From the NCBI GenBank assembly GCA_965372635.1, contig CBDVDA010000002.1, positions 1 to 50,134 on the forward strand: a DNA stretch of 50,134 bases. Reading direction: 5' to 3'. Under the pieces are notes generated by a model. The model ran no database searches, was not told the origin of the DNA, and saw only the letters and a list, made by a program, of their open reading frames with translations. Within the stretch, counting starts at the first letter, position 1, and every line of letters begins with the position of its first letter. This document shows, one piece after another, positions 7,003-49,861 of the stretch. Origin of the DNA: an uncultured bacterium (GTDB taxonomy: Bacteria; Desulfobacterota; JADFVX01). The translations under genes were made by a program, and so were the position numbers.

Positions 7003-7068
7003 ATTCCCCACTTAAGATTAAGAGGGAGCGCCGAAGGCGGGGGCCTTTGATCTTTAGGCAGTCCCTGC

Positions 7069-7162
7069 TTACTCAACAAGAGCCACAAGGTGGCCCGCCA
7101 CCCCGTCGAGAGGAAGGACGGCATCGGCAAACCCGGCGTCTATCACGGCACGAGGCATGCCG
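7069..7162 (-). pseudogene. cheB: Orphan 3'-terminal fragment of a cheB gene (last 30 codons plus stop)
   Basis: The minus-strand translation is GMPRAVIDAGFADAVLPLDGVAGHLVALVE*. The intact CheB C-terminus is GMPRAVIDAGLADAVLPLDGVAGHLVALVE*. In a hand alignment, 84 of 94 nt are identical to 13860-13953. No upstream cheB-like reading frame is present. Confidence 0.8.
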
Positions 7163-7306
7163 GAATTGATAATGGAATAATCCGGGGAATGTCCCTTAAT
7201 TTCCCATATTTATTCTTGTGGCACAAAGTCAATGGATGGTTGTATAGTGCATATGGTAACAATCAAGGCTATGAATCCGTTACGTGTTACTCGTTATAAC
7301 ATCAAC

Positions 7307-8569
7307 CTAGTCTATACCTTGTAGTCCCCCATAATATTTAATCTCTCTGTTCAATTCATGCAACACTAAAAGATTTTTTTTCTCATAAAGCTTCATCTTT
7401 TGCCTCTCTGCAGAAAAGTACTCTCTCAATGTCAAACCAGCATGCGAACCTGCCACGGCAAAGGTGCACAGATTTCTGATCGATGAGATTGATTTTTCAT
7501 TTGAACCATACAGAATATTCAAGATGATCGAGCCAAATTTCGGAGTATAATGAAAGCTGTCCAAATAGTATTGCATTACTATGCCTGTTTTAATGTCATG
7601 GCGAGGTAAACTTTCAGTTGTAAGTTCATTAACAGTGGCAAAATCCCATACAGGAAATGTTTCTTTTGAAAATTTAATAGCTTCTTCTTTAACTATTGCA
7701 GCCAGTGTTTCCTTCCAGTTCTCATATGTGCTCCATAAATCATACGCCTTAATTGTTTCCAACAATATGATGTGTTGCGGTGAAATGAACAGCTTCAAAT
7801 TTATGTTATTTTCATAGGAAAATGATATTAGTTCACGATAAACATCAAATATTGATTCGTCCTTATCCACAAAACCAAAAACCCTTTCTTGCCCTCCTGC
7901 AAGCTGATTTATGTAAGTACGTGTCGCTGAATAGTACATAACACTCCTTTGTCCATCCAAACGTTCTATGCCTTCTTCCATAGAAAACAGATATCTTTTA
8001 CCTGTTTGAATGTCATATTCCAGTCTTTCAACGTTTCTTTGTCTCAGGATTGTTGAAAAGCTGTCGTTAATGGCATCGACAGAAAATAGAGTTTCCAGTT
8101 TTTCTTTAATTATGTTTTGCTTATTGTAGCCAAAACCTTTCTCCATGAAATCACGGTTAGCTCTATAAATGTTAAAACTAAAGAAGTCCAGGCCAATAAC
8201 TACTTCTTTTAATGGTGCGACCGAATGAACATATTTTAAAAGAGCCAACGTTTCACGCAGGCTGTTGCCTCCTATCGCATAATTATAGCGAGGCGCTGTT
8301 TCTTTTGGCCAAGCCGGGTCATTCATGTCAATGCCGTAATCTGCCGGAGATGCACCCAATACTATGGTCTTTGGTTTTATCTTATAGACCTGATGCGCTT
8401 TTACCATATGAATTCGGCGATAGGCTTCCGTTTTTATTCCATTAAGGCCCTTCACTGTAACTAGTCCATAGATACTGTAAGGATCTACAATGGCAATGAA
8501 AGCGGCAGGGACAAGCATTGCTGCCAAAGTTAAAACGAAAGACTTTATGAGCCAGCGTTTATATTCCAT
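7307..8569 (-). CDS. Membrane-anchored hypothetical protein, possible SGNH/DltD-like partner of the MBOAT acyltransferase
   Basis: 420 aa with one N-terminal TM helix (FVLTLAAMLVPAAFIAIV). A block-I-like VLGASPADYG and a block-V-like DSFH motif are visible. It lies 14 nt downstream of the MBOAT gene. The function is inferred from position and motifs only. Confidence 0.45.
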   Translation of the reverse strand: MEYKRWLIKSFVLTLAAMLVPAAFIAIVDPYSIYGLVTVKGLNGIKTEAYRRIHMVKAHQVYKIKPKTIVLGASPADYGIDMNDPAWPKETAPRYNYAIGGNSLRETLALLKYVHSVAPLKEVVIGLDFFSFNIYRANRDFMEKGFGYNKQNIIKEKLETLFSVDAINDSFSTILRQRNVERLEYDIQTGKRYLFSMEEGIERLDGQRSVMYYSATRTYINQLAGGQERVFGFVDKDESIFDVYRELISFSYENNINLKLFISPQHIILLETIKAYDLWSTYENWKETLAAIVKEEAIKFSKETFPVWDFATVNELTTESLPRHDIKTGIVMQYYLDSFHYTPKFGSIILNILYGSNEKSISSIRNLCTFAVAGSHAGLTLREYFSAERQKMKLYEKKNLLVLHELNREIKYYGGLQGID

Positions 8570-8583
8570 TTAAATTAACAGCC

Positions 8584-10062
8584 TCAAAAATTAAAATAGA
8601 TAAACTCGCTCAAGCGGGTCATAAGATATGTGCTCGTTGTTATCAATGCTGCAACAAATAGAGCGGATTTCAGATTCGGTCTGAACGATTCCCTTATTTC
8701 CATCGAGTTTTTTGCAAAAAGTGTAAGCATGAGAACAACCAACAGGGCAAAGAAGGTTTCATTGCCTCCCTTAACAGAAGCAAATACGTTTTCCGAAAAT
8801 GACACTTTCAGGTCAAGCGCATTGAAATATTCCTTTGTCCAAAGAGGCAATTGCATGCCGTTCAAGCCAAGCATTCCCTTGTAAACCTTAACTGCATCAG
8901 CAATCGTATTTGCCCGAAACATAACCCATGCAAAATGAATAAAGAGAAAGGTCAGCGCCCACCTGAGCGATTGGGGGAGTCCAATATTCAGTTTGCTGAA
9001 CCACCGGTGAATAATGCTTCCTACCCCATGCATTACACCCCATAATACAAAGGTCCATCCGGCGCCGTGCCACAAACCGCCGAGGAAGAAAGTAATAAAA
9101 ATATTCGCATACATCGATATATTTCTTTTTCGATTGCCTCCAAGTGGTATGTAAACATAATCCCGCAGCCAACGGCTTAATGTCATGTGCCATCTGCGCC
9201 AGAAATCTCTTATATTGAGTGCCTTGTAAGGTGAATTGAAATTCAAAGGCAACTTGATATTGAAACAGTAGGCTGTGCCTATCGCCATGTCCGTATAGCC
9301 GCTGAAATCAAAATATATCTGGAATGTGTAACTGAGCGAAGCTGCCCAGGCGTCTATAAAATGGAGCGTTGTTGTATGGTCGAAGCCGGCAGTGGCCCAC
9401 TTCGCAAAGGTATCCGCAATAACTACTTTTTTAAATAAGCCGATGGACAGAAGGAGAATGCCCGATGCCATGTTCTGCCAATTGATGAGCTGGTTTCTTA
9501 ATGAGTGAAATTGCGGCATCATTTCCTTGTGGTGCACAATGGGTCCTGCAATCAACTGCGGAAAAAAGGAAACAAAGAGGCAGTATTTTAGAAAGTCATA
9601 TTCTTTTGAAATTGTTTTGTAACTATCTACCAGGTAGGCAATTTGCTGAAAAGTAAAAAAGCTGATGGCAAGAGGAAGGGCCAGAGATAACAAGCTAAAC
9701 TCTGAACCGGAAAGCATATTTACGTTATGAATAAAGAAATCGGCATATTTGTAAAAGCCAAGGAATCCGAGATTAAAGAGGATTCCTGCTGCCAGCAATT
9801 TTTTGGGTGACATTATGACATTCTGATTTTTACCGGACCCTGAAACCATCTTCGTGAGGGTTGTACCGATCCCATAATTTACAAGGATTGACGAAAGCAA
9901 AAGGGGGAGATATATAGGATTCCAGTAGGCATAAAAAAAGAAGGACGATAAAACCAGCCATACCCTGCCCGCCAGGGCAAGGCGAAATTTGGTCAGGTTA
10001 AAATAAACAATTATGACTATAGGAAGAAAACAGTAGAGATAAACATATGAGTTGAAAAGCAA
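8584..10062 (-). CDS. MBOAT-family membrane O-acyltransferase (AlgI/DltB-like)
   Basis: 492 aa and polytopic. It has the signature FWRRWHMTLSRWLRDYVYIPLGGNR and the conserved His region GGLWHGAGWTFVLWGVMHG. Confidence 0.85.
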   Translation of the reverse strand: MLFNSYVYLYCFLPIVIIVYFNLTKFRLALAGRVWLVLSSFFFYAYWNPIYLPLLLSSILVNYGIGTTLTKMVSGSGKNQNVIMSPKKLLAAGILFNLGFLGFYKYADFFIHNVNMLSGSEFSLLSLALPLAISFFTFQQIAYLVDSYKTISKEYDFLKYCLFVSFFPQLIAGPIVHHKEMMPQFHSLRNQLINWQNMASGILLLSIGLFKKVVIADTFAKWATAGFDHTTTLHFIDAWAASLSYTFQIYFDFSGYTDMAIGTAYCFNIKLPLNFNSPYKALNIRDFWRRWHMTLSRWLRDYVYIPLGGNRKRNISMYANIFITFFLGGLWHGAGWTFVLWGVMHGVGSIIHRWFSKLNIGLPQSLRWALTFLFIHFAWVMFRANTIADAVKVYKGMLGLNGMQLPLWTKEYFNALDLKVSFSENVFASVKGGNETFFALLVVLMLTLFAKNSMEIRESFRPNLKSALFVAALITTSTYLMTRLSEFIYFNF

Positions 10063-10395
10063 TCAATTACCCCTAAACGTTGATAGCAGCAGTCACCCCA
10101 TATATATGGTAATGGCCAATGAAAGATTTAAAAAAACTATATGGTTTATGGCTAACTGCAAAACGGGTATTATATGACTATTTAGTTGATAAGCAATAAA
10201 AAAACTATGGTGTTGTGCTGAAGTCGTTGAATACTTTTAATGTGCCTATTTTTTCAATAATGTCTCTTTGATTCGATGAGACCCCTAATCTTCAATATCC
10301 ATGACAACACTATCTTTTAATAAATCTCATCGTTGCAGTTCTAACACCTTTAAAGCTTGTTTACTATTTATTTTAAAAATAATGCGTTTCAAGAT

Positions 10396-10425
10396 AGGTG
10401 GAGGCTTAATTTTAAGCCTCCACCT
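10396..10425 (-). terminator. Strong GC hairpin immediately downstream of the secreted-protein gene
   Basis: aggtggaggcttaa / ttaagcctccacct forms a 13-14 bp perfect palindromic stem 23 nt after the stop at 10448. There is no clean U-run, so the assignment as an intrinsic terminator is tentative. Confidence 0.45.
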
Positions 10426-10447
10426 CAATAAAATAATTGATAAAAAA

Positions 10448-11383
10448 TTATGGACAGGTGACGGATGCCGTACTCAAGGTACCGGAATTGTCTACAGTGA
10501 GCCGGTAGCAGTTTGAACCGTCCGTTGCTCTGAGTATTACACCCTTGCCTTGCGTCGTCACCGAGGCGTCACCCCCCTCAACTTCCAGAGCGCTGCCGGG
10601 ATTCGTGGTGCCGATACCAACCCTACCCCTGTTTGTTACCGTCATGGCGTCACCATAGTAAGTATCCCTTATTTCAAGAAGAGGGAAGAGGACATTATTA
10701 TATATTCCTCCATCATCATTCACACCCTCGATAATTACCGATGCTTTCTTCGCCGTCTGGGTGCCATAATCATCCTGAATATATAAGGCCGGTTGATTGT
10801 TCCAGTCGTTGGTAGACGGGTGGACACTTGTTATCTTCACGTCCGCTTTGTCCTCATCTGCGCCAAGGCTACCAGTTCTCTTAACTTCCAAACGCGAATC
10901 GGTAGTTGAAGTCCCGATGCCCATTGTACCGGTGAGGGCATCATAATAGATATCATCTGCAATCGTCAGTGATCCTGAATTTTCTAAAATAAGCGAATCA
11001 CCAAAATAATCGTCTGTTAGATAAAGGTGAGGGAAAATATCTGGACTAAAACTAGAATGCACACTTTTTATCATAAAGGTTGGGTGCTTCTCCTGGTTGC
11101 CGTAATCATCCTCTATATACAGCGCAGTCTGGTTGTTCCAATCGTCATCAGCAGATCTTTTGCTTGTTATCTTCACGTCTGCAGCGTCCGCACCACCGCC
11201 AAAGCCTTGATCTCTCTTAATCTCCACCCCGTAACCATCATGCCCGCTGGAATAATTCGAGTATGAACCTGCGGTTATGTCCGCACCATCGGCATGTACG
11301 GTGGAATGACTCAACAAAAGACAGACTACTAAAAGAACCGATAAAAAAAATGATTTGCATTTCCATTTGTACGCAGTTTTCAT
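10448..11383 (-). CDS. Secreted protein with two ~95-aa internal repeats
   Basis: 311 aa. Signal peptide KSFFLSVLLVVCLLLSHSTVHA. Repeat 1 is ADVKITSKRSADDDWNNQTALYIEDDYGNQ...MGIGTSTTDSRLEVK. Repeat 2 is ADVKITSVHPSTNDWNNQPALYIQDDYGTQ...VGIGTTNPGSALEVE. The C-terminal Cys pair is NCYRLTVDNSGTLSTASVTCP. Confidence 0.6.
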   Translation of the reverse strand: MKTAYKWKCKSFFLSVLLVVCLLLSHSTVHADGADITAGSYSNYSSGHDGYGVEIKRDQGFGGGADAADVKITSKRSADDDWNNQTALYIEDDYGNQEKHPTFMIKSVHSSFSPDIFPHLYLTDDYFGDSLILENSGSLTIADDIYYDALTGTMGIGTSTTDSRLEVKRTGSLGADEDKADVKITSVHPSTNDWNNQPALYIQDDYGTQTAKKASVIIEGVNDDGGIYNNVLFPLLEIRDTYYGDAMTVTNRGRVGIGTTNPGSALEVEGGDASVTTQGKGVILRATDGSNCYRLTVDNSGTLSTASVTCP

Positions 11384-12187
11384 AATATTTAAACACCTCC
11401 ATTAATTTTTTAATCAATTAAAATGGTTTGACCTGCTTGAAAGCCAAAACAGATTACCAAAGTAGTCTTCTCCCTCCCTTCCCAAGCAAAATACAAAAAT
11501 AATTACACCTTCATGCTTAATGTAAGTTTCCATTAAATCAGGTCTCTATATTATGTACTCCTATAAGGCGACAACTTTGCGGCAAAACCTTAGCACAAAC
11601 GTTACATTTACAGGGCGAATGTACACACTAAACACTAAGCCCTAACTACATGTCAAGGACAAACCACACAAATACCCACTAATCCACCAATATACAAATT
11701 CCTACCCAATAGTTACGACACTATTCCCCTAAAAATACCCCTAAATTAGCCAAATACACCCTTGAGACACCCCAAAATACCCCAGAGTAGCACAATAATA
11801 TCACCACAAAACAGCCTGAAACAGTCAAATTAACACAAAAACCAGCATGCTGCCAATATCAGTCAACACTTAACACTTAATAAAGCCGTCTGACTATTAA
11901 AAGCGCATCAAGGTATGAAATTGCGGCAGAATACGTTTTAAATGTTGGGCAAAATCTTGTCGGGTAGGGCCAAAGCAAATAGCTGACATGTAAGAACAAT
12001 GTCCTAAAAAAAGCCATCTTACTACCCTTAGAGGCTTTTTTAGGGTGAAATGGCGGTTTAAGAAACATCTAAAGCCCTGGATTCCACATCGGGCTTGGTT
12101 TATCCAGGTCAATAGCCGGGGGAATGGCAAGCAGGGAAATGCAGGTTAACTTGTTTACTCGTTTTTATGTTCGAGATGGAAAAGGGG

Positions 12188-37495: not shown

Positions 37496-38374
37496 CTACC
37501 CGGCGAGCACGGCCTCGACGACCGCCTGGGGAGAAACAAGATGCTTTTTGAAACTCAGTTTTCCCACCTCCACACCGAGAGCGAGGGCAACCAACTGGGC
37601 CACGTTGAATATTGGAAGCTGGGTCTTTCTTTTAAAAAGTTTTTCCGCCTCCCCCTGGTAGGCATCGAGAGAAATATCGCAGAGCGTGCAGGGCGTCACC
37701 ATGCAATCTGCCCCTCTCTCCTTCGCCTCCTGGACCCGTTTCCCAGTCGACTTGAGCGACGCCCGTTCATTGACGAGAAGGGTGTGAAATCCGCAACAGC
37801 GAGTCTTTCCCCGGTATTCGACGGGCGTTCCCCCGAGCGCCTTGATGAGAAGGTCCAGCGATTTAGGATTTCGCGGGTCTTCGAAACCGAGGATCTCGCC
37901 CGGCCTTAAGGTATGACACCCGTAAAAGGCGGCCACGTTCAGCATATCGAGGGGCCGTTTCACATACCCTTTTACCTTTTCCAGCCCATAATCCTTCACG
38001 AGCACCCAGAGAAGGTGGGTCATCTTCACCCCTCCTTTATACTCCATGCCTACCTCTCTCAAAACCAGGTTGGTCCGCTCCAGAAGAGCCGGGTCGGATT
38101 GAAGATCGTGGTTGATCTTGGCCATCGTCTGGAGACAGGTGCTGCAAATGGTCATGATATCGAGGCCCATCTCCTCGGCGATGGCGAATATGCGCGCATT
38201 AATGACGTAGCTCAACTCCTCGTTCGCCTCATCGAGACATCCCGCGCCGCAGCAGGTGGCGTTTTTCATCTCCACCAGTTCGATGCCGAGAATACCGGAC
38301 ACGAGCCGGGTCGCCTCGTCGGCCTCCTTCATGATCGCCTCTGCAGCGCAGCCGGGGTAATAGGCGTACTTCAT
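37496..38374 (-). CDS. CCG-domain (HdrB-like) subunit of succinate dehydrogenase/fumarate reductase (SdhE/type E third subunit)
   Basis: 292 aa. The first Cys-rich region is YYPGC...ATCCGAG. The second is FYGCH...KTRCCGFH...PCTLC. The start overlaps the sdhB stop by 4 nt. Confidence 0.75.
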   Translation of the reverse strand: MKYAYYPGCAAEAIMKEADEATRLVSGILGIELVEMKNATCCGAGCLDEANEELSYVINARIFAIAEEMGLDIMTICSTCLQTMAKINHDLQSDPALLERTNLVLREVGMEYKGGVKMTHLLWVLVKDYGLEKVKGYVKRPLDMLNVAAFYGCHTLRPGEILGFEDPRNPKSLDLLIKALGGTPVEYRGKTRCCGFHTLLVNERASLKSTGKRVQEAKERGADCMVTPCTLCDISLDAYQGEAEKLFKRKTQLPIFNVAQLVALALGVEVGKLSFKKHLVSPQAVVEAVLAG

Positions 38375-39309
38375 TTCTTTATCCCCATTAGTTTGTAGAT
38401 CTTTTCGATCTCCTCCTGCCCTTGAATGTCCTTCAGTATAGGGAAGGGAACCTTCCCCTTCATCTGCATTCGAAGCGCCATCGGTATCATTCCGAGAGAA
38501 CGGAGTACGCCCACCGTTTTGAGCGGTATCGTCGCCTCGTTCAATTTACCGTGACTTTTGATGTCCGACTGGAAGGCCATCACGTGCCTCACGCCCGGAT
38601 TATCCACCACACCCGCTTTGATCGCCTCCTGCCGGATGCGGACGATCTGATCGAGGGGACGCACATCCTTGGGGCACCTGTCGATGCATAAGTTGCATCG
38701 CGTGCAGTCCCAGACATTGGCGTCTTCGCTGAGGAGTTCGAGCCTCTCCTGCCGGATGGAATCTCTCCCGTCAGCCACGAACTTCCACCCCTTGGCGAGC
38801 GCCGCAGGGCCCATGAAATTATCGTCCGTCTCACGTATGGTGCAGTCGCCGAAACAACTGCCGCACATGATGCAGTTGGAGGATTCATCCAGTTTCTGTA
38901 CCTCTTCGGCGGAAACAACGTTTTCCTTTTCCCCTTCCGGCTCCTTCGGTTCCAGCCAGGGGATCGTCTTTTCAATCTCGTACCAGAAAGGGGAGAAATT
39001 CACAACCAGGTCTTTCACAACGGGCATATTGCCGAGGGGCTCCACGTGGAGTTCCTTATCGCCCCACTTGATGTCGGAGAGGGGGGTCTTGCAGGCGAGT
39101 ATGGCCGTGCCGTTTACGGTGACGGCGCAGGAGCCGCAGATGGCGCTCCGGCAGGACCGCCTAAAGGTGAGCGTGCCGTCCTGCTCTTCCTTTATCTTAA
39201 TAAGGGCGTCGAGGATGGTGGCGTTCTCGCCGATATCGAGGTTGAATGCCTGCATGTAGGCATCGTCCATCGACTCGGGATCGAAACGCTGTATAAATAT
39301 TTTCTTCAT
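38371..39309 (-). CDS. sdhB: Succinate dehydrogenase/fumarate reductase iron-sulfur subunit
   Basis: 312 aa. The 2Fe-2S motif is RRSCRSAICGSCAV. The ferredoxin-type clusters are CIMCGSCFGDC and CTRCNLCIDRCP. Confidence 0.88.
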   Translation of the reverse strand: MKKIFIQRFDPESMDDAYMQAFNLDIGENATILDALIKIKEEQDGTLTFRRSCRSAICGSCAVTVNGTAILACKTPLSDIKWGDKELHVEPLGNMPVVKDLVVNFSPFWYEIEKTIPWLEPKEPEGEKENVVSAEEVQKLDESSNCIMCGSCFGDCTIRETDDNFMGPAALAKGWKFVADGRDSIRQERLELLSEDANVWDCTRCNLCIDRCPKDVRPLDQIVRIRQEAIKAGVVDNPGVRHVMAFQSDIKSHGKLNEATIPLKTVGVLRSLGMIPMALRMQMKGKVPFPILKDIQGQEEIEKIYKLMGIKK

Positions 39310-39318
39310 TTCACAACC

Positions 39319-40998
39319 TCAGTACTTTCGCTCGGTTGGTTCATATTTGGTAAAAGATACGTCGCTGTAGTCGAGGCGGACGCCCTCCCCGTCTTTTGTA
39401 GCCACCGTATGCTTCATCCACTTCTCATCGTCCCGGCCTGGGAAATCTATCCGCCAGTGTGCGCCGCGGCACTCCTCTCTCGCCAGCGCCCCCTCGACGA
39501 TCACTCCGGCAAGGGAGAGCAGGTTTCCTACTTCCAGTGCCTCGATGAGGTCCGTATTGAAGGTTTTTCCTTTATCCTGGATGGCGACCTTTTTGTATCT
39601 CTCTTTAAGCTTCGCCACCTCTTCCTGTGCATTTTCGAGTTTTGCCTTTTCCCTGTAGACGCCCACGTCGCGGTTCATAAGAACTTGCAGTTCCAACCGG
39701 ATTTTCGGGTAGGACTCGCCGTCCGTCCGGTTCAGGAGATTTCCCACGTCGAAGGCGGCGTCTTCGAGGGCCTCTTCGTCCCACGCTTGAAGTTTCTTTT
39801 CACGCGCATATCTCGCCGCTGCCGCACCGACGCGACGACCGAAAACAACCGCTTCGAGGAGAGAATTGCCGCCGAGACGGTTCGCGCCATGCACACTGAC
39901 GCAGGCCGACTCGCCTGCCGCAAAAAAACCGTCTACGGTAGATGCGCCGTTTACGTCCGCCTTGATTCCTCCCATGGAATAGTGGGCTCCGGGCCGGATC
40001 GGGATAGGCGCTTCGATGGGATCCACTCCTTCGAACTGGATGCTCAGTTCCCTGATCTGGGGGAGCAGTTCGAGAATTTTCTCTTTGCCGAGATGGCGGA
40101 TGTCGAGATGGACGCAGCCGTCGATCCCACGCCCTTCGTTGATTTCCGTCTGCTCCGACCGGGAGACTACGTCACGGCTCGCCAGTTCCATGGCGTTTGG
40201 CGCATATTTTTTCATGAACCGCTCGCCGTCGGAATTGAGGAGGTAGCCCCCTTCACCGCGCGCCGCTTCGGAGATAAGGACGCCCGTACTTTTCAGAGTG
40301 GTTGGATGAAATTGGACAAACTCCATATCCATGAGCGGCACCCCGGCGTGATAGGCGAGCGCCATGCCGTCGCCCGTATTGGCGTGGGCGTTGGAGGAAT
40401 TGAAAAAGACCCGGCCATAGCCCCCGGTGGCGAAGATGACCGCCTTCGCCCGAATCCGGTGGAGCTTGCCGCTTAGCAGGTTGATAGCGACAACCCCGCG
40501 CGTAACCCCCTCTTCAACGACGAGTTTCACTACGTGCCACTCATCGTAGACCATCACCCCTCGCTTCATGATCTGCTCGTAGAGGAGGTGGAGGATGGCG
40601 TGCCCCGTCCGGTCTGCCGCATAGCAGGCCCTCGGGTGGGACGCGCCGCCGAAGGGGCGTTGGGCTATCCGGCCTTTGTCGTCCCGCGAAAAGATCGCCC
40701 CCATCCGCTCCAGTTCGTAGATGTCGTCCGGCGCCTCGCGGCACATGATCTCGATCGCCTCCTGGTCGCCGATATAGTCGCTCCCCTTCACCGTATCGAA
40801 GGTATGGCTCTCAATCGAATCTTCGGCGGCATTGCCGAGCGCCGCATTGATCCCCCCCTGGGCAGCTCCGGAGTGGCTCCGCACGGGATGCACCTTGCTC
40901 ACAATCGCCACATTGAGGCCCTCTTCCTTCGTCGCCTCGATGGCGGCCCGCATTCCCGCAAGCCCGGCACCGACAATAATCAGATCGTGGACAACCAT
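39319..40998 (-). CDS. sdhA: Succinate dehydrogenase/fumarate reductase flavoprotein subunit
   Basis: 559 aa. FAD-binding [14 protein letters not shown], then [11 protein letters not shown] with the His that takes covalent FAD. HPT, GEGG and VHGANRLG are also present. Confidence 0.92.
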
Positions 40999-41446
40999 TA
41001 ATTTAAAACCTCTTTTTCATTATAAGTTAAGTTTATCAAGAACTGATTCCAAGTCAAGAGATATCTGGGATTAGACTGTTGACAGTCAAATATGTGAAGA
41101 GTTAGAGCTGCTACAGAGCAAGTGTCACAAGAGTTACAGCCCAAGATGTTGGGCGCAATGCCCTCCAGTTATTGCACCCTACCTGGCTAACACTTTCTTC
41201 TTCTGGTGCAATATACGATTATTAGCTGAAAGTGTGATTTTCTTAACCATTCCAAAATGTGAAGATTACACTCCGTAATCGTCAAAAAACCCTTGCAATC
41301 AACAAAGCATATCGTATTATCATAGGGTGACTATCCTCCCGTAAGTGCGGTTTATTAGTAAGCCTTAACGGTTTGTATGTTCTCTGGCGACAATCTATGA
41401 TATATTTTTTTGACATCATCTTCTACAAAGTTGATTGAGGTGACAC

Positions 41447-42820
41447 TTGACTGCAAGAAATGAAAAAAGCTACTCCATGCCAATGCGTAATCTTGTTGTT
41501 ATGGTGGTTTCAATATTTGTCATTGAACTCATTCTAATGTTTTTTCTGAGCTTAGGTGGCTTCCCTCCAATTATTGAAGCTCTGCTTGATGCTGTCCTTC
41601 TTATCGTGTTGGCATCACCCTTTCTTTACTTTTTATTGTATCATCCTTTAATAATTCATATAAATGAACGCAAGAAGGCTGAAGAATACTTAGAATCAGC
41701 TCATGCTTTTTTACAAGACTTGATTAACACCATACCGAATCCAATTTTCTATAAAGATGCATCGGGCCACTATCTTGGATGTAATGAAGCCTTTGAGAAG
41801 TATCTTGGCAAGACAAAAAGTGAAATAGTTGGAAACACTGTGTATGATGTGGCCCCTATAGACTTGGCAGATAAAAACGGGCAGATCGATGATGACTTGT
41901 TTCAAGAGGAAGGGATTCAGGTATACGAAAGTCAATTTTTGCATTCTGATGGAAGCAGACGCAACGTTATCATCAATAAAGCCACTCTTAATAATGCCGA
42001 TGGATCTTTAGGAGGACTCGTTGGCGTAATAATTGACATTACAGATCGCAAACGTATAGAGGTTGATCTTAAAAAATCAAAAAAGGATGCCGATACTGCA
42101 AACAAGGCTAAATCGGATTTTCTTTCTAATATGTCTCACGAGCTGAGAACACCCCTGAATGTCAGTACCGGTTTTTCTGAAATGTTAAAAGATGGCATAG
42201 TCGGGGATATGCCTGAACAACAAAGAGAATTTATCCAGGATATTTACGACAGCTCTTACCATCTCCTTGCCTTAATAAATGACATACTTGATCTTAGCAA
42301 GATAGAATCCGGTAATATGGAAATGAAAATCACAGAAGTGAATTTAAAAAAACTAATAGAAAAAAGTCATTTATTTATAAAAAATAAGCTTTTATCAGGA
42401 GACCTTGAACTGACAATGGAAATAGGTGAAAATGTTGGGGTCATATCTGCCGATAAAAGATTGCTCAAGCAGGTACTGATTAATCTACTTTCAAATGCCG
42501 CTAAATTTACGCCAAAGGGCGGCCAGATTACAGTTGGGGCAGAAAACATAAAAGACAACTCAGGAAATGATAATAGGATTGAAATATTTGTTGAGGACAC
42601 TGGAATAGGAATTAAAAAAGAAGATTTAGTTAAAGTTTTTGAGCCCTTTAAACAGATTGAGTCAGTGTTAACGAAAAAATATCAAGGGACTGGGCTCGGG
42701 CTATCCATCTGCAAAGATATTATTGAAATGCATGGGGGCAGGTTATGGGTTGAAAGCGAATGGGAAAAGGGAAGTAAGTTCATCATTAATCTGCCTGCAC
42801 CCAAAAATCTAAATCTATGA
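41447..42820 (+). CDS. Membrane PAS-domain sensor histidine kinase
   Basis: 457 aa. Two N-terminal TM helices and a PAS region (LINTIPNPIFYKDASGHYLGCNEAFEKYLG). H-box FLSNMSHELRTPL. ATPase motifs NAAKFT, DTGIGI and GTGLGL. A TTG start with GAGGTG upstream is plausible. The alternative in-frame ATG is at 41477. Confidence 0.82.
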   Translation: MTARNEKSYSMPMRNLVVMVVSIFVIELILMFFLSLGGFPPIIEALLDAVLLIVLASPFLYFLLYHPLIIHINERKKAEEYLESAHAFLQDLINTIPNPIFYKDASGHYLGCNEAFEKYLGKTKSEIVGNTVYDVAPIDLADKNGQIDDDLFQEEGIQVYESQFLHSDGSRRNVIINKATLNNADGSLGGLVGVIIDITDRKRIEVDLKKSKKDADTANKAKSDFLSNMSHELRTPLNVSTGFSEMLKDGIVGDMPEQQREFIQDIYDSSYHLLALINDILDLSKIESGNMEMKITEVNLKKLIEKSHLFIKNKLLSGDLELTMEIGENVGVISADKRLLKQVLINLLSNAAKFTPKGGQITVGAENIKDNSGNDNRIEIFVEDTGIGIKKEDLVKVFEPFKQIESVLTKKYQGTGLGLSICKDIIEMHGGRLWVESEWEKGSKFIINLPAPKNLNL

Positions 42821-43222
42821 AAAAACATACAATACTGCTAGTTAATAATGATAAGAATTGATCAGATTACACCATAGATATGGCGCCTGATGTGTTGAGT
42901 GAGTGTCATTTAATATTCAGTTTCAACTCTTTTTCCCGTGATCGTTATTTTTTGCTCATGAAAATTCTGTGCATTAGTAAGTGTGCTAGCTAGGTTGGAG
43001 TGAATTCACAAACCCCAACAAAATAAATTCCTTTCATCATATCCACAAAACTCTTTTTCCGATACTCCACGTTGGCCCCTCAATACCATGAATATGAATG
43101 TTTAAATGTTTGCCAACTCTTTTATCTTTGATTGAAGGGAATTGAATAAATTATTTTAGGATACAGCCTGTAATGTGTAATGATATACTAAGGCACATTA
43201 TGATAGGAGGTAATATTGGCTG

Positions 43223-44560
43223 ATGATTGGTCCCACAATAAAAACAATAATAATTTTAGTTGTCATCTTTATTGGTGCTGCCCTCTATCTCCATAAAGAC
43301 GTCAGCAAAAAATCCGGCTATATCTCATCAGAAGCGTGCAAAGACTGCCACAAACGCCACTATGACGGTTGGAGCAATACTCTCCATCCCAAGATGTTCA
43401 GACCGGTGAAAAGTTCTGACGACATTTTAGGCGATTTCAACTCAAAAGATCCAGCACTGACCTTCGAAAAAAAGGATGTAGAATACGTTGTCGGCAACAA
43501 ATGGGAGCAGGTCTACGTGAGGATGATAGACGGCGAATATTACCCCCTTACCGCCAAGTGGTATATTCAGTTAAACAAATGGGTGCCATTTAAGGTTAAG
43601 GACTGGAAAGAAACCCCCATGTCTCCAAAATGCAACGGTTGCCACACAACAGGGTTCGACCCGGAAACATTTGAGTTCAGTGAATTCGGAATCGGCTGTG
43701 AAGCGTGTCACGGTCCCGGAAACATTCACGTGCAAAACAGGCAAAAAACCGAATACCCTCTGTGCGCCCTATGTCACAGTTCCGACAAGCCCGAAGAAAC
43801 GGACATCATTAACTCTGTAAACAGCGCCGTCTGCGGACAGTGCCATTCGAGAGGGCAAAGCGTAAGAGAGGGTGAAGAAGGAAAGCCCGCCTTCAGCTTC
43901 CCCGTTAACGTAACGCCGGGAGAGGACATAAAAAAATATTTCAACCTCATGAAACCGGATAAGGGGAAGGAGAATAAATTCTGGTGGGGCAACGGCATAT
44001 CGAAAAACAGGCACCAGGAGTTCGCTGACTGGCAAAATTCAAAACATTCCGAATCACTAAGACTGATGAAGGAGAAAGATAATAAGGTACGGGGCAAAAT
44101 GAATGTCCGCTGTCTGAGATGCCACTCTACAGACTATCGCCTTTCCAAAAAAGACAATGTGCCTGATATTGAAACTGCCAGGTTTGGAGTAACCTGCGTA
44201 GCCTGCCATGACCCGCATGGTCTCGACAGGGGCACAAGCTTTAAAAAGGACGGCACCTATGTCTGCGCCGGATGCCATATAGACAGCATCTCTTTTCATT
44301 CCGGCCGCAAAGGGAAGCCCCACTATCCATGTCCGCCGAGCCAGGTTGCCTGCGCGGACTGCCATATGCCCTATATCGTAAAAACAGGAGGTTATTTCAG
44401 TATCAGGAGCCATGCATTCCAGATAATAAAACCTGCCGATGCGGAAGCGCTTGGGATGCCAAGTTCCTGCCAGAACGGAACTTGCCATAAAGACAGGACT
44501 ATAGACTGGGCAAAAATGGAGTTCGACAAATTTTATCCTTCCACGGATAAACCGCTTTAA
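43223..44560 (+). CDS. Membrane-anchored multihaem c-type cytochrome (9 CXXCH plus 1 CX4CH)
   Basis: 445 aa with an N-terminal signal-anchor helix. The canonical haem sites are CKDCH, CNGCH, CEACH, CALCH, CGQCH, CLRCH, CVACH, CAGCH and CADCH. A variant site, CQNGTCH, lies near the C-terminus. Confidence 0.85.
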   Translation: MIGPTIKTIIILVVIFIGAALYLHKDVSKKSGYISSEACKDCHKRHYDGWSNTLHPKMFRPVKSSDDILGDFNSKDPALTFEKKDVEYVVGNKWEQVYVRMIDGEYYPLTAKWYIQLNKWVPFKVKDWKETPMSPKCNGCHTTGFDPETFEFSEFGIGCEACHGPGNIHVQNRQKTEYPLCALCHSSDKPEETDIINSVNSAVCGQCHSRGQSVREGEEGKPAFSFPVNVTPGEDIKKYFNLMKPDKGKENKFWWGNGISKNRHQEFADWQNSKHSESLRLMKEKDNKVRGKMNVRCLRCHSTDYRLSKKDNVPDIETARFGVTCVACHDPHGLDRGTSFKKDGTYVCAGCHIDSISFHSGRKGKPHYPCPPSQVACADCHMPYIVKTGGYFSIRSHAFQIIKPADAEALGMPSSCQNGTCHKDRTIDWAKMEFDKFYPSTDKPL

Positions 44561-44576
44561 AAAGAAGGTCCTGGAT

Positions 44577-46382
44577 GTGAAAAAAATTCCTTTCTACAGG
44601 CGTTTACGGTTCAAGTTTATCTTAGCCTACAGCCTCATTATTTTACTCGGCTCCGTTACTACAGCTTATTTTGTCATTAATATTGTTGATACTGATTTCC
44701 GAAAACTACTATTGAAGCAGTTCAATACCACCATACAAACGACTGAGAACTTCATTGATTTTCTGGGACAGACATCACTTTCGACGGCAAATCATCTGAC
44801 AACAAATGACGACCTGCTGTCATTGGTTACTAAAGATCGCAGAGAGGAGATGGTCGATCATGTTGTCTATCTTATGGAGAGTATCTCGGCGGATACGATT
44901 GTATTGCTCGATCGTGATGGAACAGTTCTGGTCAGGGGACATGATCCGGAGAACTATGGAGACACTCTAAAGTCAATTAGCATTGTGAGGAAGGCGCTGG
45001 TAGAGAAGGTCCCATCCACATCGATTGTGCAGGAACTTCAAAACTTTATGGTCTTTTCCTCCGGCATAATATACGGAGAAGATTCGAAGGAGGTGCGTGG
45101 GGTCATACTGGTCGGCCATTTAATAAATGATGAATTTGTTGAAAATATTAAGAAGAATGTTAACCTGGATATCACCATAGTAAGGGACAGGGCCGTTATG
45201 GCATCAACCCTATATAAGGGAGAAGAACGTATCTCTCTGCTGCCCATACCCTACCTTGAATATCAAATGCTTCTAAGTAACCGCAGCAAAATTATCGAAA
45301 GGACAATAATCGGCACGGAATCTTTTATTGTTGCAAAAAATTTAAGCAGCATGGAGAAGAACATGTCCGGCTCCATACTCATTACCTATCCCCAGGATGA
45401 GCTTATTGCCATAAAGAAAAACATTAAAAGAAAGTTTATCCTCCTTTTCGTCATTGGATTCCTGATAATCCTGTTCCTGGAATATAAACTGTCCCAAAAA
45501 ATCCTGAGTCCCGTCAATGAACTTATCAATATGACAAAAAGAATATCCGAGGAAGAACTCGATGTGAATATCAATATCAATACAAAAGATGAATTCCAAC
45601 TGTTGGCTGATCACTTTAACCGGATGGTCGATTCACTGAAAAAAAAGGACAGGAGATTAAAAGACTATTACGAGAACCTTGAGGAGAAAGTGAAAGAAAG
45701 AACCTCGGCGCTTAAGGCGTCAAACGACCTCAAAGAACTCTTCATGGATATTATGAGCCATGATCTTTTGAATCCGGCCGGTGTTGTAAGAACGTCTTCG
45801 GAAATCCTGTTTGAAGAAGAAAATGAGCCCCATAAGGAGAGATTTCTGGGCCTGATCAGGGATTCATCTTCAGAAATGATACAAACAATCCAGAACCTGG
45901 CTGAATACTCGAAACTTCAATCCACAGATCAACTTGAAAGAAAAACGCGTGATCTCAATGAGGTATTAAAAAAGATTGTCAGTCATTTCGACCATGACAT
46001 AAGAAGCAAAAAATTGAAACTCGGAGACTTTCCAACAGGAGAGTTCAAAGCTGACCTGAATGTGACCATTGAAAATGTCTTTATGAACCTCCTATCAAAT
46101 GCAATCAAATACAGTCATGAGGGAGGTAAAATTGAAATTGACATTCACGGGGAAAGCGGAAACTATTTAGTTACCGTTAAAGACTTCGGATTAGGGGTAC
46201 CGGATAAAGATAAAATGAGGATATTTGAACGTTTCAAACGTTCGGAGACAGGTGGCAATAAAGGGTCCGGCTTGGGGCTTGCCATCGCGAAACGTATAGT
46301 GGACCTTCATGGTGGAAAAATATGGGTTGAAGACAACCCTGAAGGTGGAAGCATATTTTATGTGCGATTGCCAAAAGAGTGA
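44577..46382 (+). CDS. Sensor histidine kinase with a ~260-aa periplasmic (Cache-like?) domain and HAMP
   Basis: 601 aa, with a GTG start 16 nt after the cytochrome stop. TM helices at ILAYSLIILLGSVTTAYFVINIV and FILLFVIGFLIILFL. HAMP region LSPVNELINMTKRIS...HFNRMVDSL. H-box FMDIMSHDLLNP. ATPase motifs NAIKYS, DFGLGV and GSGLGL. Confidence 0.82.
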   Translation: MKKIPFYRRLRFKFILAYSLIILLGSVTTAYFVINIVDTDFRKLLLKQFNTTIQTTENFIDFLGQTSLSTANHLTTNDDLLSLVTKDRREEMVDHVVYLMESISADTIVLLDRDGTVLVRGHDPENYGDTLKSISIVRKALVEKVPSTSIVQELQNFMVFSSGIIYGEDSKEVRGVILVGHLINDEFVENIKKNVNLDITIVRDRAVMASTLYKGEERISLLPIPYLEYQMLLSNRSKIIERTIIGTESFIVAKNLSSMEKNMSGSILITYPQDELIAIKKNIKRKFILLFVIGFLIILFLEYKLSQKILSPVNELINMTKRISEEELDVNININTKDEFQLLADHFNRMVDSLKKKDRRLKDYYENLEEKVKERTSALKASNDLKELFMDIMSHDLLNPAGVVRTSSEILFEEENEPHKERFLGLIRDSSSEMIQTIQNLAEYSKLQSTDQLERKTRDLNEVLKKIVSHFDHDIRSKKLKLGDFPTGEFKADLNVTIENVFMNLLSNAIKYSHEGGKIEIDIHGESGNYLVTVKDFGLGVPDKDKMRIFERFKRSETGGNKGSGLGLAIAKRIVDLHGGKIWVEDNPEGGSIFYVRLPKE

Positions 46383-46502
46383 ACTTAATTTACAGCCGTT
46401 GTGAATTCTATTCTTGCATACACCCTTAATTCTTAAATCTTCTTCCATTAGAAACGCTTGCGAGGAGGTCTCTGGAATTAGTAAGTGCGTTACTGATGCT
46501 CT

Positions 46503-47507
46503 CTATATGTCTTTGTAAGAGATAGTCCTTTCAAACTCCTTAAACTGAACGCCATCCACCTCGATGTAGGGATCGGGGCCGAAATAATTCAGGCGATCGC
46601 CCCTCTGATTGGGCTCAAGAAGGATGTCTCTCCCCCGGCTGAACTTGACCCTGTTCTCGCAGATGGAGCCGAAGAAGTAGTCCGCCTTTTTAGGCGCTTT
46701 GTCGGCCTCCGAGATATCAACGGGAACCCACCCCTTGCCCGGCACGTAAAACTTCGCCCAGCAGTGATAGCCCCCCTTTTTTCCTTCGGGGAGGTCTTTC
46801 CCCGGCGTGAGGGGGAAACCCATCTCGAAAACCACCGGGATGCCTACGGAACGCATCATGGCTCCGAAGAAGGAATGAAAATCTGTACAGTTACCCGTCC
46901 CTTCCTTCCCTTCGTTAATGGTCAGGCAAATGCGGTTCACATCGCCCTTCCCCCATCCCGGCACCGTCTTGTTATAGGCCATCTTGTCCAGGATGTACTC
47001 ATAGGTTCCTCTCGCCTTGTCTACAATGCCTTTACGGCCCTCGGTCGCCTTGGCAGCAAATTTCCTTACCTTGTCATTGATGACGGCATACTTTGAGGGC
47101 GTAAGGTAGAGATAATAGGGATCGGACTTGCCAATGGAAGCATCGACATTCTTAAGTTTTTTGTTCCTGATCTCCGTCCTTTTCACGGTAAAGCTCATCT
47201 TCACCTCAAAATCACCGGCCCCCGCATCAGGTTTTACAAAGAGTATCCCATTACCGAACTCCTTGTCATAGTTGACCTTGGCCGGGTAAGGGCTCTCCAC
47301 CTTCATTTCGAGTATTTCCTGGGCCTCGTCATTTACCGGGTAAGGTATCCAGATGTCGACATTCCTGGCATCTGAAGGGATACCTCTTATCTTGGCGGTA
47401 TAGGTCATCTCGAAGGTACGGCTCTTCTCTTTTGCATAGAGAGAAAGAGGCCCAGAAAGCAGACAAAACAGGCCTGCAATCAACATTGTGATAAATCTTC
47501 TTTTCAA
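46503..47507 (-). CDS. Exported transglutaminase-like cysteine protease-fold protein
   Basis: The transglutaminase core Cys is in GTGNCTDFHSFFGAMMRSVGIPV, with a later His in GYHCW. I place the start at TTG 47507, giving MKRRFITMLIAGLFCLLSGPLSLYA, a typical signal peptide. AGGAG lies 8 nt upstream of it. The ORF-track start at 47570 would add 21 aa without an RBS. Confidence 0.7.
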   Translation of the reverse strand: MKRRFITMLIAGLFCLLSGPLSLYAKEKSRTFEMTYTAKIRGIPSDARNVDIWIPYPVNDEAQEILEMKVESPYPAKVNYDKEFGNGILFVKPDAGAGDFEVKMSFTVKRTEIRNKKLKNVDASIGKSDPYYLYLTPSKYAVINDKVRKFAAKATEGRKGIVDKARGTYEYILDKMAYNKTVPGWGKGDVNRICLTINEGKEGTGNCTDFHSFFGAMMRSVGIPVVFEMGFPLTPGKDLPEGKKGGYHCWAKFYVPGKGWVPVDISEADKAPKKADYFFGSICENRVKFSRGRDILLEPNQRGDRLNYFGPDPYIEVDGVQFKEFERTISYKDI

Positions 47508-47809
47508 ATTCACTTCTCCTTTTTTTAGATGGCGCAAAACCATAATGCAATCATTCCGTCGATATGTCAAATCGGTTATATCTATACCAAGTGCGCTTTG
47601 TATTCAGATTTTTTATGGGCGGTTGATTCAAATCCCAGGAACATCGTGTTCAACTATGAACAACCACGCTTAAAATGAGCTAAACTATTTCAATCACGTC
47701 CCCGTTAAGTTCCTTTTTAAATCAAGGAATATCTATTGTTTAGAATGCATAAAAGAGGTTGTATTTTTGTTCGTATCATGTAAAATTGTTACTATTTGAG
47801 GGAGATGCC

Positions 47810-49861
47810 ATGCCGAAAGTCCTCATAATCGAAGACCACGAGAAGCTCGCCCACTTCATCCAGCAATTTCTCCAGAAAAAAGGGGTCGAGGCGGATCTCT
47901 TCCTGGACGGATTCAGGGGGCTTGGCGCCTTTTCAAAAGGGGCCTACGATCTCCTCATTATCGACCTCGAACTCCCCCTCATGGACGGGAGAACGCTCTG
48001 CCAGGAGGTGCGGTCCAGCGAAAAGGGTAAAGACCTCCCCATAATAATGATGAGCGGGGCCGTCAAAGACCCTGCCGACATGGAAGCCCTTACGAAAGAA
48101 TTCAACCTCTCTGCATTTTTCACAAAACCGTTCCAGTTCGACCAGTTTGCCATCCCTGTCCGGGAGGCGCTAACCAAAAGGAAACCAGCCGCACCTCCGG
48201 CTGCGCCCTCCCCTGCACCGGAGGAGAATGCCCCGCAAGCAGTTCTAAAGGGCCGCCTAAGCGAGCGGCCCTTCGACATGGTCCTGAACCTGATCAATAA
48301 CAAAAAGCTCTCCGGCACGCTGTTGCTGAAAGGCAAAGCGAAGCGAAAAAAAATATTCTTCCTCGGCGGCGCGCCCCTCGACCTTCTCGCCTCACCGGAG
48401 GAAGAAAACTTCGGCAACTACCTCCTGCAAAAGGGGCTCGTCTCCATGGTGGAGTTGTCGGAATACGAGAGTTTGAGAAAGAAGGAGAGAGGAGACCCGC
48501 GAAACATCTTTATCCAGATGGGCTGCCTTTCGCCTGAAAAGTTTGCCGAAGAAAACAGGCACTACATCATAGACAACCTGGTGGACGCCTTTTCCTGGCA
48601 AGACGGTCTCTTTGCCTTCGAGCCGAAGCCGTCCTTCATCCCCTTCAACCATAACGCCGCCGCCGATCTCCCTCTCGTCTTCTTCACCGGTTTCGGAAAG
48701 CACGCCGCACCTGCACGGACAAACAGGTTCTTCGACGAAAAGAGCGGTTTCTTTTTAAGCAAGTCCCTCGCCTTCTACCAGTACCAGAGCCACCTCGCCG
48801 GAAACAGCCTGGCGGGAAAGCTCCTCGCCCTCATCGACGGCACGCGAACCTGTTCCGACATTATCGGCGCAGCAGGCGGAGAAGACCAGAAGGCGCTCGT
48901 CTTCCTCTTCACCCTCGACGCATTGAAGATGCTCTCCTTTTCGAAAGAGCCGAAGCAGGCGGAAAGTGCGCCCCCCTTCCCGATCCGGGAGAGGGAGGTG
49001 GTAGAAGCGGCAGCGGCCAAAGAAGACGAGTTCGAAGACCTCGGAGAGGAACTGAGCCTCCTCTCCGACGAACTGGAGGGGATCGAGACGATGCAGCAGC
49101 CCGGACCGGAGGCGGCGAGCGGCGGCGAGATGAATGCGTTGGAAGAGGAGTTAAAGGCCGAACTTGAGCGGGTCAAGGGGAAGAACTATTACGAAGTTTT
49201 CAGGATGACGCCAAACAGCTATTCCTTCAACAGCCTGAAAAAGACCTATTTCGAGATCACGCGGAAATTCAGCCCCGACAAGTTCTTCGCCAGTTCGGGT
49301 GAGATGATGAGTCTCGACGAGGAGCTCCTCTCCATCGTGGCCGAGGCCTACGAGACCCTCTCCAACGTCGTCTCCAAGGAGAGCTACGACGAGCATCTCG
49401 ACTCGCAGGAGGAGTCCTCTCTCAGTGGCGGAGAAGAAGACATAAAGATGAAGCTCCAGATCCAGTTCCAGTCGGGGAAGATCTTCCTCGAAGAGGGGCA
49501 GTACGACGGGGCGAAGAAGGCTTTTTCCAACTGCATAGAGATGGCGCCGAAGAAACCGGAATACCTCGCCTACATGGCCCTCGCCATTTACAACAACCCC
49601 GCCAACCGGGGGAGCAAGGCGACCACCACACAGGCGAAAGATCTCATCAACAAATCCCTCGCCCTCGGCAAGCTCTCCATCGCCTACGCCCTCAAAGGGG
49701 CCATCCTCTTCGACGATGGGAACCTGTCACTCGCCGAAGCGGAATTCAACAAAGCGCTCAAGATCAACCCGAACAACAGGACGTCCATGAAGAAGCTCGA
49801 AGAGATCAGGGAGAGGCGGGAGAAGGAGAAGGGCGGGCTCTTCAAGAGGATGTTCAAGTAA
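47810..49861 (+). CDS. REC-PATAN(DUF4388)-degenerate J-domain-TPR multidomain protein
   Basis: The start is taken at ATG 47810, with GGAG 5 nt upstream. REC is VLIIEDHE...LLIIDLELPLMDG...FTKPF. PATAN is LKGRLSERPFDMVLNLINNKKLSGTLLLKGKAKRKKIFFLGGAPL. The J-like segment is KNYYEVFRM...LKKTYFEITRKFSPDKF...AYETLSN..SYDEHL. TPR-like repeats sit at the C-terminus. Confidence 0.75.
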   Translation: MPKVLIIEDHEKLAHFIQQFLQKKGVEADLFLDGFRGLGAFSKGAYDLLIIDLELPLMDGRTLCQEVRSSEKGKDLPIIMMSGAVKDPADMEALTKEFNLSAFFTKPFQFDQFAIPVREALTKRKPAAPPAAPSPAPEENAPQAVLKGRLSERPFDMVLNLINNKKLSGTLLLKGKAKRKKIFFLGGAPLDLLASPEEENFGNYLLQKGLVSMVELSEYESLRKKERGDPRNIFIQMGCLSPEKFAEENRHYIIDNLVDAFSWQDGLFAFEPKPSFIPFNHNAAADLPLVFFTGFGKHAAPARTNRFFDEKSGFFLSKSLAFYQYQSHLAGNSLAGKLLALIDGTRTCSDIIGAAGGEDQKALVFLFTLDALKMLSFSKEPKQAESAPPFPIREREVVEAAAAKEDEFEDLGEELSLLSDELEGIETMQQPGPEAASGGEMNALEEELKAELERVKGKNYYEVFRMTPNSYSFNSLKKTYFEITRKFSPDKFFASSGEMMSLDEELLSIVAEAYETLSNVVSKESYDEHLDSQEESSLSGGEEDIKMKLQIQFQSGKIFLEEGQYDGAKKAFSNCIEMAPKKPEYLAYMALAIYNNPANRGSKATTTQAKDLINKSLALGKLSIAYALKGAILFDDGNLSLAEAEFNKALKINPNNRTSMKKLEEIRERREKEKGGLFKRMFK

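Follow-up and report, generated by a model that had tools for sequence, protein, structure and literature searches.

The window analysed here, a 50,134-nt stretch from an uncultured bacterium of the Desulfobacterota (GTDB lineage JADFVX01; assembly GCA_965372635.1, contig CBDVDA010000002.1, positions 1 to 50,134), carries at 43223-44560 a gene for a decahaem c-type cytochrome, followed at 44577-46382 by the gene of a membrane-bound histidine kinase with a periplasmic sensor domain, here called HK2. The best explanation of our data is that the two genes constitute a self-contained two-gene sensory module acquired by insertion, and we consider it probable that their products form a co-sensor pair of the LuxP/LuxQ kind, with the cytochrome as the input. 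An N-terminal helix that is not cleaved off would hold the decahaem cytochrome in the inner membrane, facing the periplasm, where it would provide the input to the dCache domain of the receptor encoded beside it, as LuxP does for LuxQ. The trigger might be either the reduction or oxidation of the cytochrome's haem chain, or the binding of a small molecule (NO, nitrite, hydroxylamine, sulfite or O2) by a haem whose axial site is open. In both cases the change in the cytochrome would be passed on to the dCache domain by protein–protein contact, and from there through the second transmembrane helix (TM2) and the HAMP domain to the output, which here would be autophosphorylation of HK2 and in other lineages the synthesis or turnover of cyclic di-GMP (c-di-GMP). 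Physical contact and co-transcription are read from the gene arrangement, and we likewise infer the cytochrome–HK2 complex, the direction of information flow and the nature of the signal. The parts of the module are as follows:

43223..44560, plus strand: decahaem c-type cytochrome, signal-anchored and OcwA-like (ten haem motifs, OcwA homology)
44561..44576, plus strand: spacer of 16 nt with the GAAGG ribosome-binding site for HK2
44577..45479, plus strand: HK2 residues 1-301, with the first transmembrane helix (TM1), the periplasmic dCache domain and TM2 (AlphaFold2 (AF2) model, Foldseek, Pfam)
45489..45641, plus strand: HAMP domain of HK2, residues 305-355 (PF00672, E 5.3e-11)
45732..46376, plus strand: kinase core of HK2, with HisKA at residues 386-449 and HATPase_c at 497-600 (PF00512, PF02518)

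The reading is carried above all by a linkage between cytochrome and sensor domain that recurs across lineages. A scan of metagenome contigs with an alignment of the cytochrome gave 66 loci, to which G214, which also shows the cytochrome–sensor gene pair, was added from a search of the phylum. Orthologues of the cytochrome were defined by at least 40% identity, by which 40 metagenome or genome loci qualified, and the downstream gene was scored in the 37 of these that have at least 300 nt 3′ of the cytochrome gene. At all 37 informative loci the next gene downstream starts with a sensor domain of the HK2 type (matching HK2 residues 1-300 with blastp E-values of 1e-8 to 1e-67 and 24-42% identity), the two weakest matches, at L047 and L056, being a truncated gene and a contig-end fragment. 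The junction between the two genes is mostly a 4-nt ATGA overlap, and three more contigs that start within the last residues of the cytochrome carry the same downstream sensor gene. Paralogues of the cytochrome with 36% identity or less do not have the sensor gene downstream. In a survey of 401 genomes of the window's phylum, strong matches to the sensor domain (E 1e-94 or better) are confined to the two that bear the cytochrome, and the weaker dCache relatives found in the phylum have no cytochrome upstream. All-against-all clustering of the remaining open reading frames (ORFs) of the loci revealed no further conserved neighbour: no recurring response regulator, no kinase resembling HK1 (the kinase encoded upstream of the cytochrome in the window), and no quinol dehydrogenase, porin or other redox partner.

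What changes from lineage to lineage is the output. Among 33 adjacent partners, 18 carry GGDEF (4 of them together with EAL) and 12 carry HisKA/HATPase (2 with REC, 1 with Hpt), and at least five switches between kinase and GGDEF outputs are seen on the cytochrome tree. In the whole library, a survey of 1.84 billion clustered proteins that gave 66 representatives of the sensor domain at E 1e-30 or better, the outputs of 62 representatives comprise 39 histidine kinases and 18 GGDEF proteins, with REC carried by 17; the sensor subfamily is thus a small one. Pairwise distances of the cytochrome and of the sensor are correlated (r = 0.88, Mantel 0 of 5000; r = 0.41 for distant pairs), so that the pair has been inherited as a unit, the cytochrome evolving far more slowly (median identities are 48% for it and 23% for the sensor). 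Clustering at 70% identity sorts the 25 complete pairs into 16 clusters, and the contigs of the pairs range from 30 to 59% GC. A sensor domain that stays fixed while its outputs are exchanged, and to which one neighbouring gene only is tied, is what marks an input module with an accessory protein of its own; in our reading, therefore, the cytochrome is the co-sensor, and the role of transducer falls to the dCache protein. A bulk respiratory role is argued against by the translational coupling of cytochrome and receptor, together with the lack of a conserved gene for an electron donor or acceptor. The first-pass annotation of the window had proposed, as a check, to survey whether homologues of the cytochrome are linked to kinases elsewhere; the outcome is strongly positive, a gene with the sensor domain following at each of the 37 loci, but the constant partner is the dCache domain, to which GGDEF is attached at least as often as a kinase.

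The closest named homologue is found in a Nitrospirota genome (G529), with 63% identity for the cytochrome and 51% for the sensor. The gene order there is cytochrome, dCache-HAMP-kinase (with an 8-nt overlap) and REC-DUF3369-GGDEF (L123, G529:C4, 2684-6636 and 10347-11981). The last of these has no clear orthologue in the genome of the window (G000), where the best candidate is a GAF-GGDEF protein, and judging from gene content a REC-GGDEF partner may have been lost by HK2 here or may never have been present with it. The genes of a family-B DNA polymerase and of a RelB antitoxin, together with a DUF1848 fragment, are found upstream of the G529 module and hint at a mobile or defence-island context.

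The cytochrome is a protein of 445 residues with an N-terminal hydrophobic helix, which the AF2 model places at residues 2-24; it has nine CXXCH motifs and, as the last, a CX4CH (CQNGTCH). All ten haem motifs are invariant in an alignment of 38 homologous sequences, from which the conservation of motifs and residues was read. It matches the Cytochrome_C554, Paired_CXXCH and c7/c3 models, and no NCBIfam model reaches its cut-off. A database clustered at 90% contains 820 homologues, and among the best 120 of these 820 the identity ranges from 49 to 94% (the top two, P0001 and P0002, having 94 and 80%). Named sources among the homologues listed are Nitrospirota, Latescibacteria, Magnetococcus, a Solemya gill symbiont, Pontibacterium, SAR324, Gallionella and other Proteobacteria, gene context having been inspected for the Nitrospirota genome only. 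Magnetococcus massalia MO-1 and Magnetococcus sp. PR-3 are among these sources. A scan of genome contigs with the single cytochrome as query returned distant paralogues only.

The closest solved relative of the cytochrome is OcwA, the nonahaem surface cytochrome of Thermincola potens (PDB 6I5B). When the PDB was searched with the cytochrome profile (hmmsearch), 6i5b came first with an E-value of 1.9e-60, query residues 26-441 aligning to chain residues 10-437, and was followed by OmhA (6qvm, E 1.1e-20); Foldseek with the AF2 model of the cytochrome also retrieved OcwA (E 2e-22, TM-score 0.63). The nine haem motifs of OcwA all align, in the same order, in the cytochrome family, which has in addition a tenth haem absent from OcwA (CALCH, 181-185) and CX4CH as its last motif. 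Seven histidines outside the motifs (H55, H169, H275, H332, H367, H397 and H264) are common to the family and OcwA. By an HMMER alignment in which chain and paper numbering differ by a constant offset of +29, H55, H169, H275, H332, H367 and H397 are taken to be six distal haem ligands and H264 to be the equivalent of OcwA H281. K261, R263, H264, Q265 and E266 vary little or not at all, which would fit a conserved polar pocket (K261-E266) at the equivalent of haem 2. The cytochrome ends, at residue 445, close to OcwA chain residue 437 of 526, and the region of the OcwA three-helix bundle is missing; the C-terminus of the AF2 model likewise has one short helix (427-437) and no three-helix bundle. 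With the OcwA/OmhA clade of the NrfA-c554-MccA multihaem cytochrome superfamily the protein thus shares full-length homology in sequence and fold and the nine motifs, though not the C-terminal bundle. OcwA is a terminal reductase without a membrane anchor such as this cytochrome carries, no link to a receptor was found for it in the literature searched, and the papers on OcwA and on the evolution of multihaem cytochromes make no mention of sensors.

The HK2 gene (44577-46382, plus strand) begins with GTG, preceded 8 nt upstream by GAAGG and lying 16 nt past the TAA of the cytochrome gene, exactly the distance noted in the first-pass annotation. It encodes a transmembrane helix, a periplasmic domain of about 250 residues, a second transmembrane helix, HAMP, HisKA and HATPase_c, and the kinase boxes are present in the translation (MSHDLLNP for the H-box; NLLSNAIKY, DFGLGV and GSGLGL for N, G1 and G2). 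The AF2 model of the sensor (predicted local distance difference test score (pLDDT) 96) has a helix at 10-74, strands at 107-183 and 198-272 and a helix at 274-300, that is, a long N-terminal helix and two PAS-like alpha/beta modules between the two transmembrane helices, and its best Foldseek matches are the sensor domains of Tlp3, PctA, DctB and LuxQ (E 1e-10 to 1e-7), along with vpHK1S-Z8 and KinD. The periplasmic domain is thus predicted to have a dCache fold. It matches Pfam CHASE4 with 27.6 bits (cut-off 26.2), and dCache_3 (PF14827) matches 18 of 33 cytochrome partners and 27 of 62 sensor representatives. No column of conserved Cys or His exists in the sensor alignment (A3, 29 sequences), therefore the domain has no haem site of its own. 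Its conserved positions are few, being F49, D106, G115, F157 and G180 in the distal module and A206, P223, Y229, L232 and S266 in the proximal one. A Cache_heme identity of the HK2 sensor was rejected, as the domain contains no haem motif.

The principal rival explanation, which we regard as unlikely, gives the cytochrome the part of an enzyme of the NrfA/MccA/OcwA kind that reduces or detoxifies, for instance, nitrite, hydroxylamine or sulfite in the periplasm. The dCache protein would then be an independent receptor that shares its operon, senses the substrate unaided and controls expression or behaviour, with no signal passing between the two. The mcc genes with the MccRS two-component system provide a precedent for such an arrangement. 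An enzyme would fit the conserved polar pocket K261-E266 and the relationship to OcwA, for which nitrite reduction and a reaction with hydroxylamine are documented (PMC6703420); furthermore, dCache domains usually bind small ligands themselves, and the top fold matches include the ligand-bound Tlp3, PctA and DctB. However, the pair has no conserved DNA-binding response regulator beside it, over half of the partners that adjoin the cytochrome in the metagenome sample produce c-di-GMP instead of phosphorylating a regulator, and in G529 it is a REC-GGDEF protein that comes after the kinase. The missing DNA-binding regulator and the frequent c-di-GMP outputs weaken the enzyme explanation. Moreover, translational coupling to the receptor would be more in keeping with a signalling component of low copy number than with an enzyme, and the neighbourhood has no conserved electron donor of the NrfH or CymA type.

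A further question is how the module came to its present location, and the genes and borders around it in the window are these:

37496-40998, minus strand: type-E succinate dehydrogenase genes, flanking the block
39319..40998, minus strand: sdhA (TIGR01812, E 1.4e-241), left flank of native composition, 58-64% GC
41001..41446, no strand: AT-rich non-coding left border of the presumed inserted segment, GC going from 0.62 to 0.38 at 41000
41447..42820, plus strand: HK1, a membrane-anchored PAS histidine kinase (Pfam PAS_4, HisKA, HATPase_c)
42821..43222, no strand: intergenic region of 402 nt 5′ of the cytochrome gene, with three 19-nt repeats and AGGAGG at 43206-43211
46503..47570, minus strand: transglutaminase-like gene of native composition (PF01841, E 8.8e-20)
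47759..49861, plus strand: REC-DUF4388(PATAN)-J-like-TPR response regulator (Pfam), the ancestral divergent neighbour of sdhA

Every real gene of window positions 1-41000 is carried on the minus strand. Positions 41001-46400 have 40.5% GC as compared to 50.4% for the 3.33-Mb genome, which is within the lowest 0.6% of 5-kb windows; windowed GC goes from ~0.62 to 0.38 at 41000 and back up at ~46500, with the kinase genes at 34-42% and the cytochrome gene intermediate at 44-52%. The ORF listing, the Pfam and NCBIfam scans and the windowed GC run thus bear out the first-pass description of a cytochrome gene between two AT-rich kinase genes, positions included, in an unusual, compositionally distinct plus-strand block. 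Its statement that no response regulator adjoins either kinase is strictly correct, and no cognate regulator is encoded alongside HK2 in the block, but the REC-PATAN response regulator lies 1.4 kb downstream of HK2, beyond one convergent gene; we found no evidence that this gene is the partner of HK2.

In G005 and G086, representing two other genera of the window's family, sdhA and the REC-PATAN orthologue stand side by side in divergent orientation, with 79 and 144 nt between them, respectively (L107, G005:C104, 4520-8350; L109, G086:C248, 920-4752), and 41001-47758 has therefore been inserted or rearranged here. Orthologues of the transglutaminase-like gene (67-75% identity) are on contigs other than that of sdhA in the three relatives checked, implying that this gene has moved in the window's genome. 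The break in synteny is stronger evidence of a foreign origin than the low GC, which by itself is weak, and is not decisive because a paralogue of HK1 (76% identity) sits in another low-GC stretch. The cytochrome is absent from all four family genomes searched, and so is any sensor-domain match at E ≤1e-10. No convincing flanking repeats, insertion sequence ends or Rfam matches were detected at the borders of the block, and the sole match when plasmid carriage of the cytochrome was considered is a 29%-identical paralogue in Granulicella. A second low-GC island of ~5 kb (39-43% GC) lies at 7001-12000 of the window, with minus-strand genes at 7307-8569, 8584-10062 and 10448-11383.

The origin of the block bears on another explanation, that the genes stay together for co-mobilisation or assembly only, the receptor being a scaffold or maturation partner, or the pair a mobile unit, with no information flowing between the products. 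The distribution is patchy, the pair being present in 2 of 401 and 1 of 401 genomes of two phyla, the pair here is inside the inserted low-GC segment, and that of G529 is near the RelB antitoxin and family-B polymerase genes, all of which would be expected of a mobile unit. Nevertheless, we hold this explanation to be quite improbable, as it leaves unexplained both the at least five replacements of the output beside a fixed sensor domain and the maintenance of gene order and overlap down to ~45% identity of the cytochrome and ~15-25% of the sensor.

The other kinase of the block, HK1, is a protein of 457 residues with two N-terminal hydrophobic helices separated by nearly no loop, followed by PAS, HisKA and HATPase_c. 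The paralogue mentioned above (G000:C15:15777-16922; L128 3769-5793, minus strand) encodes 674 residues, the 76% identity extending over residues 71-452; its surroundings are a stretch of 37-45% GC adjoining the gene of an 880-residue kinase, and kinase-bearing low-GC stretches recur in the window's genome. No HK1-like gene is found beside the module in the orthologue loci that have upstream sequence, and L046 is the only one with a kinase fragment upstream. From these neighbourhoods, HK1 is judged not to be part of the conserved module, and it was rejected as a component of the device since no HK1-like neighbour recurs; for the same reason, the sandwich of two kinases emphasised in the first-pass annotation is incidental. 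A three-protein device, in which sensing on the cytoplasmic or membrane side would be left to the PAS domain of HK1 and sensing on the periplasmic side to HK2 together with the cytochrome, deserves hardly any credence: the three genes share a strand and a low-GC block, and no plus-strand terminator-like site occurs in the gap between HK1 and the cytochrome gene, but that gap is 402 nt long, HK1-like genes do not accompany the module elsewhere and the nearest relative of HK1 is its paralogue in the same genome. The gap also contains three copies of a 19-nt direct repeat, of the AACTCTTTTT type or the (C/A)AACTCTTTT type, at 42924-42942, 43048-43066 and 43114-43132 (spacings of 124 and 66 nt), which could be a candidate regulator-binding array upstream of the cytochrome gene.

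Several observations weigh against the co-sensor reading. The loci on which it is based are chiefly metagenomic, come from few habitats and include several that are closely related. In two lineages the partner is cut to 236 or 84 residues (L039 9322-10032 and L064 1034-1744; L047 1792-2046 and L078 451-705), without continuation in other frames, so that the cytochrome may be retained where the receptor is no longer intact; these lineages may represent either decaying modules or receptor-less cytochromes. No cognate response regulator of HK2 could be identified in the window's genome, and, as weaker evidence, no fusion of cytochrome and receptor was found among the longer homologues. The AF2 model of the cytochrome is moderate (pLDDT 69.8) and worst around both pockets. 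Haems 2 and 5 of OcwA are five-coordinate, each below a His-His pair (H281/H282 and H380/H381; PMC6703420), and H282 and H381 are conserved throughout OcwA/OmhA (bioRxiv 10.1101/2022.02.24.481543). Reading the alignment, H281 corresponds to H264, which is invariant in the cytochrome family, but H282 is replaced by an invariant Q265 and H381 by K365 at a variable position. Any ligand-binding haem with open coordination in this cytochrome is therefore presumptive.

Proteins of ~530 residues such as P0222 had been candidates for fusions and were rejected, because their polytopic N-termini lack CXXCH; P0222, P0223, P0235, P0243, P0251 and P0261 (~500-550 residues) have a polytopic N-terminus of ~200 residues, a distant dCache domain, one further transmembrane helix and no cytoplasmic output. 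At L084 (1032-4400) and L085 (1-3177), the gene of a 618-residue NrfA-like cytochrome (25% identity) is followed after 45 nt by that of a HAMP histidine kinase whose N-terminal region of ~190 residues has no Pfam match, and these loci may be a second, independent cytochrome–kinase pairing.

We class the module with the accessory-protein-dependent receptors, among which the accessory protein itself appears to be unprecedented. As in LuxP/LuxQ of Vibrio and in TorT/TorS, the gene of a periplasmic partner adjoins that of a membrane receptor in a conserved pair. In LuxP/LuxQ the state of the partner is relayed by contact to a double PAS-like periplasmic domain of the dCache type, whereas contact is a proposal here, and the structures that Foldseek matched to the HK2 sensor include the periplasmic part of LuxQ (3c38 and 2hj9; E 3e-8 to 2e-7). 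Unlike LuxP and TorT, which are soluble type-I binding proteins, the partner here is a membrane-anchored decahaem cytochrome, and unlike in LuxPQ the outputs include GGDEF and EAL besides kinases. Separate haem proteins encoded next to their targets also serve as input in trans in H-NOX with HahK kinases or HaCE c-di-GMP enzymes and in NosP/NahK. The H-NOX and NosP systems resemble the cytochrome module in combining one haem partner with interchangeable histidine kinase or GGDEF/EAL outputs, but they are cytoplasmic gas sensors with a single b-type haem, while the module has a periplasmic protein with ten c-type haems and a transmembrane dCache receptor. In Streptomyces, the extracytoplasmic haem-binding accessory protein HbpS modulates the membrane kinase of HbpS-SenS-SenR under redox stress (PMC4991794); HbpS is, however, secreted and not a multihaem c-type protein, its system includes the response regulator SenR, and no sequence relationship to the cytochrome module was seen. 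The Cache_heme/sCache_heme receptors (DUF3365, Tll0287-like) are periplasmic Cache receptors with a c-type haem and kinase or c-di-GMP outputs (bioRxiv 10.64898/2026.02.01.703092). In these the CXXCH is inside the Cache domain, in contrast to the haem-free dCache domain of the present module, whose haems are on a separate ten-haem protein. The pairing of a multihaem cytochrome with a dCache receptor is not described in the full-text literature searched, which covers few subscription journals and does not prove novelty.

As to the signal, the redox poise of the haem chain and a small ligand at an open haem are both candidates, the data favouring neither; the latter is what an OcwA/NrfA ancestry would suggest by analogy. 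The redox or electron-acceptor sensing device envisaged in the first-pass annotation is accordingly supported in part, as to a cytochrome and a receptor with the haem in a separate protein, but redox is not singled out over a small ligand. Tentatively, and with more doubt than confidence, we raise the possibility that the ten haems act as an 'antenna' that would wire the periplasmic redox potential directly into c-di-GMP and phosphorelay signalling through the dCache domain, which would make the module a widespread and undescribed class of receptor that senses electrons and not chemicals, with inputs possibly extending to the quinone pool or to extracellular acceptors.

How bacteria at oxic–anoxic interfaces turn periplasmic or extracellular redox conditions into decisions on biofilm formation or motility is largely unknown. 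Known haem sensors have one haem, either within the receptor (haem-PAS, Cache_heme) or on a cytoplasmic partner (H-NOX, NosP). Since the module consists of two genes only, it should be possible to reconstitute it, and bioelectronic strains might make use of it as a part that converts a redox input into transcription or c-di-GMP. If the co-sensor reading is true, a multihaem wire as the input of a dCache domain would be a new type of input for two-component and c-di-GMP signalling, and multihaem cytochromes would gain a role in signalling besides that in respiration.

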